Notes: a model not told the origin generated them from the sequence alone. A DNA stretch of 32,000 bases from Labilithrix luteola (GCF_001263205.1 NZ_CP012333.1:5290556-5322555); one strand, 5' to 3'; positions 15,220 through 20,821 are shown, counted from the first letter of the stretch. Translations and numbers: made by a program.

Positions 15220-15251
15220 GAGACTCTCAGGTGGAGGCGCCGGGAATCGAA
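15220..15251 (-). repeat. copy A of the tmRNA 3'-end/att core
   Basis: gagactctcaggtggaggcgccgggaatcgaa matches gagactcttaagtggaggcgccgggaatcgaa at 20449-20480 at 30/32 positions, in the same orientation. Confidence 0.8.
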
Positions 15252-15629
15252 AACAGGAGGAATCCCAGCAGAAGGCGCACGTTCCGGCACGAATCTGGAC
15301 GAGTGCATCGACGCCGACGAGCCGGCTCGAGCCGAAACTGGCCTGCCAAAACCGGAACCGTCGGAAGGAGTCGACACGACCGAGGACGCATTCGTTGCTC
15401 CGTCGGTAGGCGCCAGCGATGCCCGCTGCTCGGTCTCGGCCTCGGCCTCGGCCGCGTCGCTCGCTGCTGATGGCCAGGTACTGCGTCGCGATCCGATCGC
15501 TGCTCACTTTCGGTGGGGCCTGCGCGGTCGGCCATGAATCATCTGACTTGTGAGCGACCCTACCTGGAGGAGTTTAGCACCGCGCTACTCGAGATGATGG
15601 AGGCGGCGTGACGCCCTGCAATTACTCCT

Positions 15630-16058
15630 TCACGTGGGTGACACGGAAGCCGAACCCTTCGATGAGGGCCGCACGCAGCCGGTTTCCCCGTATGGGTATG
15701 CATGGGGCTCGTACTCCAGCCGAGCGTGGTCGGGCCGTACACGTCGAAGGCGAATCAGGTGATACTCACCGTTTCTGAACGCGTCGATCATCGACCCGAA
15801 GTCCCACGGCGTGACGAGGTTCGGGTCATCCATCCGCTTGTCCGCCGGCGTCGTTTGCCAGCGACGCAGCCAGTCGTGGCGCTCCGCCTCGGTCGGCCAC
15901 CAGAAACGCGAAAGCGCGTCGTCGTCGTCGAAGAAACGTGTCCAAAACTCATCATCCCGAAAGTCGTCGTCGGCCTTTGCCTTGGCCAGGGCGCCAACGA
16001 CCGCGCCGAGGCGCGCGTACGCCTCCTCGTTGTCGAACGTGAACTCGACGAAGGACAT
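15630..16058 (-). CDS. hypothetical acidic Trp-rich protein; C-terminus possibly frameshifted
   Basis: ORF 15630-16181. Start ATG 16058 is preferred (MSFVEFTFDNEEAYARLGAVVGAL..FWWPTEAERHDWLRRWQ..). After ..YPYGE the listed frame ends GCVRPSSKGSASVSPT*. The +1 frame reads ..RLRAALIEGFGFRVTHVKE* (stop 15622-15624) and looks more protein-like. Confidence 0.55.
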   Translation of the reverse strand: MSFVEFTFDNEEAYARLGAVVGALAKAKADDDFRDDEFWTRFFDDDDALSRFWWPTEAERHDWLRRWQTTPADKRMDDPNLVTPWDFGSMIDAFRNGEYHLIRLRRVRPDHARLEYEPHAYPYGETGCVRPSSKGSASVSPT

Positions 16059-16264
16059 GCGCGAACCTTTTTGACGCGCCGGCGTGCGGTCATCAACGGA
16101 AACAGCACATGCGATAACGACCCCCGGAAAACGCGAAGCCCCGACAGGTCGAGTCCAAAGCGCGAGGCCGCTGCTATCCAAACGCCATCAACCGTCGCGT
16201 GCCGCGGTGTCGGTTCGATCGTCCTTGGGCGGCGTGGATGCGCGAGGAGGGGGCTGGGGAGGGA

Positions 16265-16326
16265 GGAAGGGGAAGCGCAGCTCCCCTTTCGAACGAGGTT
16301 CTCAGGTGGATGCGCCGGGGCTCGAA
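16265..16326 (-). repeat. copy C of the tmRNA-flank hairpin + 3'-end/att core (degenerate)
   Basis: Hairpin ggaagggga/tcccctttc (16265-16290) is followed by tcgaacgaggttctcaggtggatgcgccggggctcgaa (16289-16326). This matches 20443-20480 at 31/38 positions, with the same hairpin-then-core layout as 20417-20480. Confidence 0.7.
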
Positions 16327-16744
16327 TTACTACAGAGGGCAGCAACCGAAAGACGAAGCGTGGTGCGGCCTTGGCCCAGTTCACTTCGCGACATCCGCTG
16401 GCCGTCCTTCCATCCCGTTCCGCCGCGTTCCGCCTCGTTCCCTCGCGAAGGTCGAGCTTTCGGCAGCCTGACGGCGCCTGTTTCCAAGTCGCGCCGCGCG
16501 TAACGGTTGTCGCCGGTGGGACATGTGCTCCTCACGAGGGGGTTGAATGCACGATCGACAAAGTTGCGGACTTCGACCACGGCGCCGCCCGTTCGATCTC
16601 GAAAAGCGGCGTGCAAGCGAAAGACGAAGGCTTCCACGCCCACCAGGACGGCCAGTCGGCTCTCACCAGCGAGAGCGGGGGGCGTTGGCTCGTCCGCGAC
16701 GACGACGTATGCTCGCCGTTTGCGTTCCCGCGGAGAACACGAAA

Positions 16745-18600: not shown

Positions 18601-19851
18601 TCGCAGGAGCGATTCGGTGTAGCTCCGAGTGTCGAGGTACCGGCGCGATTTGCTGTTGAGCGAGGTCATTACTCGCCGTACCGGCATGCGAAACATGATC
18701 TCGGCGCTCAGCCCCATCTCGCGAGCGATGTCGGCGAAAAGCGCGGCGAGATCAAGTTCGTGCTCCTTGTAGTAAGACGATTGCAGAACGAGAAGTGCTT
18801 GTCCGCGTGCAGTCAGCGTCCGGCGAATTTCAGCAAGTGATTCGTCTGCGTCGTTGAAGTACTGAAGCAGGTTGCGAAGGTAGTAACCCTTCGACCGGTG
18901 TGAAGGATGGTCTCGAACGCTTGCCAACACGCGGCGAAGTCGGCGCGGCCAATGTTCGGGGATTTCGTCTGTTCGAGGAGACCGGATCGCAGTCGTGCCC
19001 ATAAGCGCGCGCCGCAACGTCGCGAACGCCCCGGCGTCGCACCCTAGCACGGCGAGTTCCAAGCGGGTGGTGACTGCGTAGTCGATGCGCGTGCAGTACG
19101 GGGGGGAGCCCAGGATCAGGTGGACGCTTCGCGACGCTATGGGGAGCGAGCGTGCGTCTGCAAGCACAACACGCGATTTGTCAGCCAGGTCCTTCCGAGG
19201 AGGGTTCACACTCGCGTACTGCTCGGCGATGCGGACGAAGTCGCGGGAGATATCCCGCGTCGAAATGTTGATATTCGCGCCCGGCCGAGACCAGGTGGGA
19301 TTTGAGACCCGCGTTCGCGGGACGAGGTCGCTGACAGCGCGTACAAGTGCAAACAGTAGGAACGCGGCGCCCGGTGGGATGGCGGTCCAGTCGGCCGGAA
19401 TGTCGAACTCGCGACGTATCGCCGTTGCGATACCTTCCACGCGGCGCGCCGCGGACGTTGGCATCCATTGCTCAAGTTCGTCGATGGGGGCACTGGACGT
19501 AGCGATGCGCCGGGCGAGCGGCCGCGCAACTTCGACGGCCTTCAGCCGTTCGGGGGCAGGACAGAGCTTGGCTGCTGAAAGGACGACGGCAAATGGGTTC
19601 AGGTCGATACCGACCGCACGGTGACCTTCCTCGACCGCTGCGCAAAGCGTAGTACCGCTCCCCGCCCAAGGGTCGAGCACGAGTGAGCCGGGCCGGAGCT
19701 CCGCTTCGGCAATTGCGGCGGAGGCAAAGCGTGACGAAAATCCCGCGTAGTACGGGTACCAGGTATCGACGCCCTCATCCCGAGCCAGACGCTTCGGGTT
19801 GAGAACGAGGGGGAGCGCTTCCGTCATCGCGTGATGGCCCATTCGTATCAT
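18586..19851 (-). CDS. DNA amino-methyltransferase (N4-C or N6-A), motif order I..TRD..IV
   Basis: Motif I is VLDPWAGSGTT (19648-19674). AVGIDLNP follows. About 180 aa later comes motif IV, GSPPY (SPPY = 19096-19107), then ..EIRRTLTARGQALLVLQSSYY. Alternative starts are at 19842 and 19827. The 3' end overlaps the convergent HEPN gene by 15 bp. Confidence 0.85.
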   Translation of the reverse strand: MIRMGHHAMTEALPLVLNPKRLARDEGVDTWYPYYAGFSSRFASAAIAEAELRPGSLVLDPWAGSGTTLCAAVEEGHRAVGIDLNPFAVVLSAAKLCPAPERLKAVEVARPLARRIATSSAPIDELEQWMPTSAARRVEGIATAIRREFDIPADWTAIPPGAAFLLFALVRAVSDLVPRTRVSNPTWSRPGANINISTRDISRDFVRIAEQYASVNPPRKDLADKSRVVLADARSLPIASRSVHLILGSPPYCTRIDYAVTTRLELAVLGCDAGAFATLRRALMGTTAIRSPRTDEIPEHWPRRLRRVLASVRDHPSHRSKGYYLRNLLQYFNDADESLAEIRRTLTARGQALLVLQSSYYKEHELDLAALFADIAREMGLSAEIMFRMPVRRVMTSLNSKSRRYLDTRSYTESLLRLRRH

Positions 19852-19883
19852 GGACCGGCTTCACATCGTCGGAGGTTCCCCTC

Positions 19884-20144
19884 GTGGCGGTGACGCCGGC
19901 CCTCGTTGTGGACAGAAGCATCGCGCTCGAGTGGTTGAGCGTCGAGCTTCGATGTGGCCTCCTCACCGTCGAACGGTTGGAGTGAAAGGGCAAAGTCACG
20001 GAGACGAAGGGCATGGAGTATCGTGTCGCCGCGATGACGCAGCGGTTCAAGAACGCTCTGGCCGCTCATCGCGATCTAAGGAAGCGCGTGCTGTACACCG
20101 ACGAAGGCGGGCTCTTGTCGAAGATCGACCCATCAACGCCGTGG
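19884..20144 (+). pseudogene. tyrosine recombinase (integrase) internal fragment with in-frame stop
   Basis: Translation: ..VAVTPALVVDRSIALEWLSVELRCGLLTVERLE*KGKVTETKGMEYRVAAMTQRFKNALAAHRDLRKRVLYTDEGGLLS... The pattern W.(D)V.L..G.L.V.RSEWKG.V..TKG...R.VPMT.RL..AL..HR is typical of phage-type integrases. TGA at 19983-19985 replaces the expected Trp. Both the N-terminal and the catalytic C-terminal parts are missing. Confidence 0.5.
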
Positions 20145-20460
20145 CGTGACATCGCGATGCGGGCGAGGGGAGAGCTCGAGAGGGGGAGGCGCAGCTCCCG
20201 CTGCCCCGCGGCGAGCGAGCGTCTCGTGGTGCCGAGCGAGGAGCGCCGGCTCAGCGCGCCGGGCGTGACATCGCGATGCGAGCGAGGGGAGAGCTCGAGA
20301 GGGGGAGGCGCAGCTCCCGCTGTACCCGCGTCGATCGAGCATCTGGTCGTGCGTAGCGAGTCCCACCGGCTGATCGCGCCACGCATGACATCGCGATGGG
20401 AGCGAGGGGAGAGCTCGAGAGGGGGAGGCGCAGCTCCCCCTCTCGAACGAGACTCTTAAG
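20145..20460. repeat. tandem repeat, 2.6 units of 119-120 bp, abutting the tmRNA 3' end
   Basis: Units start at 20145, 20264 and 20384. A 59-bp core (cgtgacatcgcgatgcgRgcgaggggagagctcgagagggggaggcgcagctcccgctg) differs at 1 position between units 1 and 2. The remaining roughly 60 bp are only about three-quarters identical. Unit 3 runs into the att core. Confidence 0.9.
20417..20444 (-). terminator. hairpin 17 nt downstream of tmRNA 3' end
   Basis: gagaggggg (20417-20425), a 10-nt loop, then ccccctctc (20436-20444), forming a perfect 9-bp GC-rich stem. No U-tract follows on the minus strand. Confidence 0.4.
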
Positions 20461-20821
20461 TGGAGGCGCCGGGAATCGAACCCGGGTCCGAAAATTCCGA
20501 GGCCATCTGCTTCTACGTGCGTATCTGGCCATTTGAATCGTCCCGATTTGCGCGGGCCAGCGCGCTCTCCTCGGGACTATTCACCTGTTTGATCTCGCCT
20601 TGCCCCCGGTGACCCGGGGCTCGGCCAGCCAGTTTGATGACGGTCTTCCAGAGGCACTGGCAGGCCCCTTGGTCAACCGGCTCTCAGACCTGCTAGTTAG
20701 GCAGCGAGAGCAATTGCGTTATCGTTCGCAATTGTGTTTGCCGAAAGATTTTTACGTGGTCTTTCAGCAGCCACGGCACGCAGCAAGATGGTCGAGATCT
20801 CCGTCGAAGCCGATCGCCCCC
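20461..20821 (-). ncRNA. ssrA: tmRNA (transfer-messenger RNA)
   Basis: The minus strand reads 5'-GGGGGCGAUCGGCUUCGACGGAG.. and ends ..GGACCCGGGUUCGAUUCCCGGCGCCUCCA-3'. The acceptor stem pairs GGGGGCG with CGCCUCC and includes G3:U70. The T arm is CCGGG-UUCGAUU-CCCGG. The internal tag ORF is GCA AAC ACA AUU GCG AAC GAU AAC GCA AUU GCU CUC GCU GCC UAA (..ANDNAIALAA*, stop at 20697-20699). CCA is not encoded. Confidence 0.92.

Follow-up and report, generated by a model that had tools for sequence, protein, structure and literature searches.

Displaced tmRNA gene ends downstream of ssrA in Labilithrix luteola as probable remains of integrative elements

How did a transfer-messenger RNA (tmRNA) gene come to be followed by two further copies of its own 3′ end? 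The question is raised by the ssrA locus of Labilithrix luteola, which we analysed in a 32,000-nucleotide (nt) stretch of DNA (NZ_CP012333.1:5290556-5322555), called the window below and numbered from its first letter. The attachment site of an island (attP) is known to restore the tRNA or tmRNA gene that it enters, a displaced fragment marks the far end, and tandem arrays have been described (Hudson, Lau & Williams 2015, PMC4383910; Williams 2002, 2003 cited therein). In the Islander survey, the tmRNA gene was the most enriched target (PMC4383910). We consider it quite probable that integrative elements, inserted at the ssrA 3′ end by an integrase, left behind the array seen here, and that this array has since decayed and become immobile. 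A preliminary description, made from the sequence alone, had already read the displaced fragments as marks of such insertions, and the T-loop boundary, the integrase family, the foreign composition and the relatives support it in this; the islands, described there as nested, lie in tandem. The features that carry the argument are the following.

20461-20821, minus strand: tmRNA gene (ssrA), intact (ARAGORN, Rfam RF00023)
20461-20480, minus strand: gene-proximal attachment (att) core, attL-like; exact 20-mer, structure from the Rfam alignment
20417-20460, minus strand: 3′ trailer (16 nt) and strong GC hairpin with a 15-bp stem (folding)
19920-20108, plus strand, towards ssrA: tyrosine-integrase relic (homology to the integrase P0121; tblastn)
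16240-16326, minus strand: copy C, displaced ssrA 3′ fragment; core 16307-16326 (17/20), trailer 16291-16306, decayed hairpin 16265-16290
15220-15251, minus strand: copy A, displaced ssrA 3′ fragment; core 15232-15251 (20/20) and 12 nt of trailer (10/12), then an abrupt junction

The live gene defines the core. ARAGORN called one tmRNA gene (20460-20821, minus strand, tag ANDNAIALAA), which matched Rfam RF00023 over the full model (positions 1-374) with 164.8 bits. The mature tmRNA 3′ end (...CGCCUCCA) falls at position 20461, and the CCA is not encoded. Read on the plus strand, the last 20 nt of the gene are TGGAGGCGCCGGGAATCGAA; by the Rfam alignment they comprise 7 nt of the T-loop, the 3′ strands of the T-stem (5 nt) and the acceptor (7 nt), and the discriminator base. 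The hairpin behind the gene, with its 15-bp GC stem, folds at −31.6 kcal/mol (z = −3.9). It is followed by no T-tract in the sequence, and it is presumed to be a terminator or processing structure of ssrA.

We searched the window for this 20-mer, allowing up to three mismatches, alongside 100 shuffled controls. Exactly three matches were found, all on the plus strand, at 15232 (no mismatches), 16307 (three) and 20461 (none), so that the three same-orientation copies of the earlier account stand far above the shuffles, which gave 0.01 matches on average and three matches in none of the 100. Both reported identities also held on alignment: 15220-15251 differs from the genuine end (20449-20480) at 2 of 32 positions (30/32 identical), and 16289-16326 agrees with it at 31 of 38 (25/32 by alignment, together with the six identical bases TCGAAC). 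When copy A was left out and an nhmmer profile was made from the genuine end and copy C, the profile still detected copy A (E = 1.4e-6), and the 32 kb gave no additional match to the core. Copies A and C lie downstream of ssrA in the orientation of the gene, reach the discriminator base and run on into the non-genic 3′ trailer. On their other side, they lose similarity to the gene at one common base, the 5′ edge of the T-loop, and the island-side arms beyond it are unrelated to the tmRNA body or to each other, with scores at the shuffle mean. Local alignment of the two trailer-side flanks, that of copy C and that of the genuine end, gave a score of 44, compared with 16.6 ± 2.6 for shuffles, of which none in 500 attained this value. 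Moreover, the outermost 27 nt of copy C (16240-16266) match DNA downstream of the tmRNA gene in a relative (L046, 1136-1162) at 96%.

The variant core of copy C, TGGATGCGCCGGGGCTCGAA, also forms the 3′ end of an unannotated tRNA-like gene (5223-5242) in L174, a 163-kb IMG/VR viral contig. This gene has the acceptor GGATGCG/CGCATCC, encodes its CCA and adjoins a tRNA-Met. The three core differences of copy C may therefore reflect a different source instead of decay.

The same kind of GC hairpin had been assigned to copy C and to the genuine end. The motif is indeed specific to the locus, which holds all four of its matches in the window (0.29 expected); the stem at copy C, however, has decayed to ~7 bp (z = −0.3). 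The two distal units of a 120-bp tandem repeat beside the gene carry decayed hairpins as well, which leaves that of the live gene as the only intact one and fits selection on the live gene only.

The integrase relic that had been noted near the tmRNA-proximal end proved to be real. In the homology search it was 69-70% identical over 64 amino acids (aa) to P0121, a 192-aa integrase with the PF00589 domain (E = 2.8e-17), and tblastn aligned it to residues 30-93 of this protein (E = 9e-21). Pfam and NCBIfam searches did not detect the relic, for which the direct homologue P0121 is the sole confirmation; no other integrase-like sequence was found in the window by tblastn. The relic is devoid of the N-terminal part and of the catalytic C-terminal half (HxxR, Tyr), and the translation of 19700-20460 shows a nonsense codon (TGG>TGA) inside it, at 19982-19984. 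The P0121 gene itself, on contig L167, stops 14 nt before TGGAGGCGCCGGGAATCGAACCCGGGTCCG at the contig end, a tmRNA 3′ end in convergent orientation, and an HTH_17 (excisionase-like) gene lies just upstream of it. The P0121 locus and the window share this convergent geometry of integrase and ssrA.

To follow the family, we used the 20-mer to collect loci from GTDB genomes and IMG/VR and ran tblastn on them. At ~20 independent genome and IMG/VR loci, a P0121-family integrase (36-72% identity) ends ~45-250 bp from the exact 20-mer, mostly in convergent orientation. At three loci (L116, L119 and L136), the core belongs to a complete tmRNA gene and the integrase is adjacent. The relic in the window reads towards ssrA from a distance of 353 bp, with a repeat array in between; we counted it with the family layout (convergent, ending within ~250 bp of an ssrA T-loop core) despite this distance. 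Together, the geometry of the P0121 locus, the ~20 pairings of integrase and core, and the complete tmRNA genes at three loci argue that the relic would belong to an ssrA-specific integrase family acting in the T-loop.

The array that separates the relic from the gene is listed here.

20147-20438, no strand: 120-bp tandem repeat, 2.4 copies (TRF score 442, 88% matches)

It takes up the position expected for the C-terminal half that the integrase gene lacks. Each unit consists of a hairpin copy and ~35 nt that are also present beside the L046 tmRNA gene (L046 1090-1172, 79%). We considered the units as degenerate tmRNA 3′ ends and rejected this, as the profile matches the hairpin part alone; the 59-nt spacers of the repeat resemble the gene end no better than random window segments do (p about 0.18). 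The frame of the relic stays open through all 2.4 units (20013-20459), with a stop only in the ssrA trailer. The unit length of 120 is divisible by 3, and the resulting 148-aa open reading frame (ORF) could be annotated as a gene.

The segment next to ssrA (16327-20416) had been described as holding DUF262, HEPN and methyltransferase genes, and all three are intact and supported by Pfam.

16547-17869, plus strand: ParB/DUF262 (GmrSD_N) protein, 440 aa, NsnA/PD-T4-2_A-like (Pfam PF03235, E = 8.3e-29)
17866-18600, plus strand: HEPN (RiboL-PSP) protein, 244 aa (Pfam PF18735, E = 4.1e-16; phrog_22325)
18586-19851, minus strand: DNA methyltransferase (N6_N4_Mtase/type II methyltransferase-like), intact ORF of 421 aa (Pfam PF01555, E = 2.6e-10)

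In this module (16547-19851), the DUF262 and HEPN genes form one operon, in which the start of the second overlaps the stop of the first by 4 nt, and the methyltransferase gene is convergent. The composition check proposed in the preliminary description gave the same answer by three measures. GC content is 55-60% across 16.4-18.8 kb, compared with 63-70% in the flanks. The tetranucleotide correlation of this island with the rest of the window is 0.914, compared with a minimum of 0.952 among equal-sized core windows, and the GC content at third codon positions (GC3) is 0.66-0.71 in the cargo genes and 0.78-0.86 in their neighbours. The segment 16327-19900 is compositionally foreign. Among PADLOC profiles, the DUF262 protein matched NsnA (E = 1.9e-58, profile positions 40-376 of 385) and PD-T4-2_A (3.6e-43), and the methyltransferase matched MTase_II (E = 5.7e-24); the PHROG match of the DUF262 protein was phrog_2598 (E = 1.1e-76). 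The neighbouring HEPN protein matched no PADLOC profile at E ≤ 0.01. In the window search, the combination of DUF262, HEPN and methyltransferase fell under no named PADLOC system. Judged by its protein families, the module probably acts in defence against phage.

Farther from the gene, the inner segment (15252-16264) and the outer junction hold two more features.

15630-16058, minus strand: small conserved gene AKJ09_05144, 142 aa (23 homologues, 49-85% identity)
14963-15223, plus strand: IS66-family tnpA remnant (NCBIfam NF047593, E = 1.2e-11, above the cutoff, profile positions 9-78 of 79)

The small gene attributed to the inner segment is real by its 23 homologues, some of which come from Planctomycetes, although Pfam, NCBIfam, PADLOC and PHROG gave no match to it. 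The status of the segment as an island, which the same account had assumed, is unproven in view of its host-like composition, its missing integrase and a homologue without att sites; it is at most an integrase-less 1-kb remnant, or old flank, and we treat it as a candidate island only. Two side observations concern the homologues. A four-gene run led by a NADase_transloc (PF25302) protein ends with a homologue of the small gene (70% identity) in L172 (5649-8438) and in L173 (3744-6533), an arrangement that recalls a toxin and its immunity genes. A (CTCGGC)n microsatellite at 15429-15453 differs by 12 nt in length from its counterpart in the contig L171.

On its outer side, copy A retains 12 nt of trailer and then directly meets the 3′ end of the tnpA remnant; on sequence grounds, the original downstream arm of copy A was therefore probably lost in a later rearrangement. 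The remnant also has a weak Pfam HTH_Tnp_1 match. In place of a complete IS66 (tnpA, tnpB, tnpC) we found tnpA only, followed by the ssrA trailer: tnpB and tnpC were not seen in the annotated parts of the window, and inverted repeats were not searched for. The breakpoint lies almost exactly at the natural tnpA/tnpB boundary, with the profile matched to position 78 of 79.

We compared the locus with those of relatives, as had been proposed. The tmRNA genes of L046 and L080 are 89-92% identical to that of the window. L046 is 87-94% identical to the window from 20387 rightwards, on the upstream side of ssrA; to the left of this point it has unrelated DNA and no second core. Yet other sequences directly follow the gene in L080 and L169 ('Myxococcales bacterium 68-20', tmRNA 89%) and in L170 (85%). 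With L046 collinear upstream and the DNA directly downstream different in each of the four relatives, the upstream side of ssrA appears stable and the downstream side variable. A scan of metagenomes with a Labilithrix-specific tmRNA 36-mer yielded three short contigs and no empty site. The preliminary description had also hinted that the tctcagg shared by copies A and C is older than the present junction. The live-gene trailer of L080 reads ctctcagagg before the core (window plus strand) and resembles this motif, which supports the view that copies A and C may carry an older trailer state.

Beyond these relatives, a scan of genome contigs for the exact 20-mer returned at least 119 loci, with at least 1-2 per genome in the complete Sorangium genomes among the matches listed. 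Sorangium So ce1128 (L048, L135) has two 20-mer blocks whose starts lie ~16 kb apart, and in Sorangium sp. So ce513 (L108, L165) the starts of two such blocks are ~712 kb apart, which suggests a very large or rearranged ssrA island. Many Polyangiales genomes contain two or three copies of the ssrA 3′ end 50-140 bp apart, identical from CGATTCCCGGCGCCTCCA onwards (in sense-strand coordinates, L070 5936/6043/6152 and L154 2577/2690/2803; also L162, L053, L076, L136, L064 and L152). These close-set copies often continue into one shared trailer and terminator. L064 and L152 show the order non-tmRNA DNA, core, terminator, second core and integrase, in an 8-kb block without a tmRNA gene.

In the scenario that we favour, tyrosine-integrase elements of one family would have recombined their attP with the chromosomal site (attB) inside the ssrA T-loop. 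Each insertion would have given the live gene an element-borne copy of its last 20 nt, apparently together with trailer and hairpin, and would have displaced the older 3′ end, which then lay downstream as a direct repeat without function. Such a history takes two insertions or more, or else a single one by a composite element that already had a relic inside. The element next to ssrA (16327-20416) would have kept its cargo intact, and its integrase would have been cut to a 64-aa stretch with a nonsense codon, so that the element should be unable to excise by itself. The distal segment would be an integrase-less remnant of the kind of a cis-mobilizable element, and the outer copy A would have been truncated later by the rearrangement that joined it to the IS66 fragment. 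We infer the number and order of the insertions, the travel of trailer and hairpin with the elements, and the role of the cargo in defence.

Several observations weigh against this scenario. The outermost copy, A, has the core of the live gene and the middle copy, C, has three mismatches, the inverse of a simple age gradient. The similarity between copy C and the genuine end extends ~45-70 nt beyond the gene end, which plain recombination of attP with attB does not predict; an extra assumption is needed, namely that the elements carry a captured trailer and terminator. An empty site was found in none of the four relatives, nor was a shared downstream gene, and the ancestral downstream flank was not identified. 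The inner segment shows neither a compositional anomaly by tetranucleotides nor an integrase by tblastn. Moreover, an 842-nt homologue of it (window 15308-16149, 84% identity) occurs in L171 (1536-2363) with no ssrA fragment nearby; in this Logan genome, the homologous block sits between HMA/cupredoxin genes.

That the similarity reaches so far beyond the gene would indeed point to a captured trailer and terminator on the elements, and the blocks in L064 and L152, as well as the short-period core arrays of several Polyangiales genomes, are compatible with this. One could go further and propose, tentatively and with more doubt than conviction, that P0121-family elements of Polyangiales hold the host ssrA trailer and terminator besides the core, sometimes with an attP of the 'double core' type, for which L064 and L152 give the order P arm, core, terminator, second core and integrase. 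On this view, an insertion would exchange both the terminator and the 3′ end of the gene, and repeated cycles would leave arrays with a period of 50-140 bp (L070, L154, L162, L053, L076, L136, and the 120-bp repeat here), which might serve as landing pads that spare the live gene.

Serial double insertion and the insertion of one composite element both fit the data. In the latter case, copy A and the genuine end would be the attR and attL of a single 5.2-kb element (15252-20460), and copy C an internal scar of an earlier tandem array in a previous host, formed by accretion and followed by excision via the outermost sites. Such a scar would explain why copy A has the live core (20/20, and 30/32 with the trailer) and why the internal copy C is the most diverged (17/20). 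The 12-nt trailers can be read in the same way, as that of copy A differs by two positions from the genuine end and from copy C, which differ from each other by four; in Dehalococcoides, too, tandem ssrA islands have been proposed to accrete and to be mobilised together (PMC3146451). Against a composite element, 27 nt beside copy C match chromosomal tmRNA-downstream DNA of L046 and so suggest a host and not an element, the inner segment is host-like in composition, and a second example of a composite element was not found. We therefore regard a single composite insertion as rather unlikely.

Integrase-free origins fare worse than the insertion of elements. The ssrA 3′ region could have been duplicated by slippage, unequal crossing-over or illegitimate recombination, with other DNA inserted later between the duplicates and the integrase relic incidental. 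The 120-bp repeat beside the gene shows that local duplication happens readily here, copy A was joined to the IS fragment by illegitimate recombination, and a segmental duplication would carry similarity well past the gene end, as seen for copy C. It would not, however, stop twice at an integrase crossover site, and both copies end at one T-loop position with unrelated DNA beyond. The integrase family of the relic adjoins this 20-mer at ~20 loci, and island 1 is compositionally foreign, which makes duplication improbable. A core without any tie to ssrA, whether a repeat dispersed in the genome or a coincidental match, might be argued from the copy C variant, which recurs as the 3′ terminus of the tRNA-like gene on the IMG/VR contig L174. 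Such a core is hardly credible given the shuffle expectation for the window, the gene orientation of all copies within 5.3 kb downstream of ssrA, the non-genic trailer shared by copies A and C, and the Sorangium counts given above.

The proposed insertion of integrative elements at ssrA also places the locus among described systems. It is of an already well-known kind and leaves the current understanding unchanged. As in Islander islands, an intact tmRNA gene is followed by same-orientation terminal 3′ fragments with an island between them, the crossover lies in the T-loop region, and a tyrosine integrase stands beside the regenerated end. Here, however, the integrase is reduced to the 64-aa relic, with no integrase gene inside, and the second segment is 1 kb long without any. 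The Islander length range of 2-200 kb includes the stretch from ssrA to copy C (4.1 kb), and that from copy C to copy A (1.0 kb) lies below it; the integrase filter and the 2-kb filter would thus reject part of this array. It also falls outside the Islander 'resolve' rule for tandem arrays, with two fragments and a single relic, none being present in 15252-16264. The survey itself contained few arrays of at least three (4/3919 islands; PMC4383910).

The closest described case appears to be that of the tandem ssrA islands of Dehalococcoides, which show direct repeats of 20 bp, insertion in the T-loop and an integrase next to attL, and whose integrase-less tandem members were read as cis-mobilizable elements (McMurdie et al. 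2011, PMC3146451). Their recombinase, DsiB, is a CcrB-like serine enzyme and their cargo is rdhA, whereas we found a tyrosine integrase (PF00589) relic and the DUF262/HEPN/methyltransferase module. The inner segment has the structure of a cis-mobilizable element, as it lies between copies C and A with one small gene and no recombination genes, and it resembles such elements and accretion products (PMC5704250; PMC3146451) in being an att-repeat-bounded, integrase-less segment in tandem with another element. In contrast to them, the sites here may no longer work, given the three mismatches in the core of copy C and the loss of the outer arm of copy A.

With respect to the cargo, PD-T4-2, Menshen NsnABC and GmrSD (PMC12065111) offer the nearest comparison, as the DUF262 protein matches NsnA and PD-T4-2_A near full length and is followed in the operon by a predicted nuclease-type effector (HEPN). 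In Menshen, NsnA (ParB-DUF262 and ParBDB) is followed by NsnB, an ABC-ATPase/DUF3696 protein, and the effector NsnC (PMC12065111). The module here has no NsnB ABC-ATPase, NsnC or DUF1524 nuclease domain; its partner is a RiboL-PSP HEPN protein with a convergent methyltransferase. We rejected an assignment as a Menshen system because, by Pfam and PADLOC, NsnB and NsnC are absent and the next gene encodes HEPN. From PD-T4-2, the profile of component A is matched.

The locus is a myxobacterial instance of mobile DNA settling preferentially at a single tmRNA gene. In Polyangiales genomes and in viral contigs from soil, a tyrosine-integrase family goes with one exact T-loop core of 20 nt, a pairing from which a tool for site-specific integration could be made for the myxobacteria, a group that is difficult to engineer. 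The locus also shows a probable defence module (DUF262, HEPN and methyltransferase) fixed in the chromosome once the integrase decays.

The remaining observations concern the surroundings of the locus. On the upstream side of ssrA lies the following gene.

21108-22604, flank of ssrA: Ser/Thr kinase gene

Several long ORFs at 591-7040 and 10924-14398 had no Pfam match. The region 6758-10729 encodes an RCC1-repeat protein, a large protein with an IgGFc_binding domain (E = 6e-90) and an extracytoplasmic function (ECF) sigma factor. A 42-bp tandem repeat with the consensus CCGGTGAAAGTCGCCGGACTTCGGCGGAGTCGAAAGAGGGCG (14421-14687, 6.4 copies, 73% matches) lies between a high-GC3 ORF (13544-14398) and the IS66 tnpA remnant.

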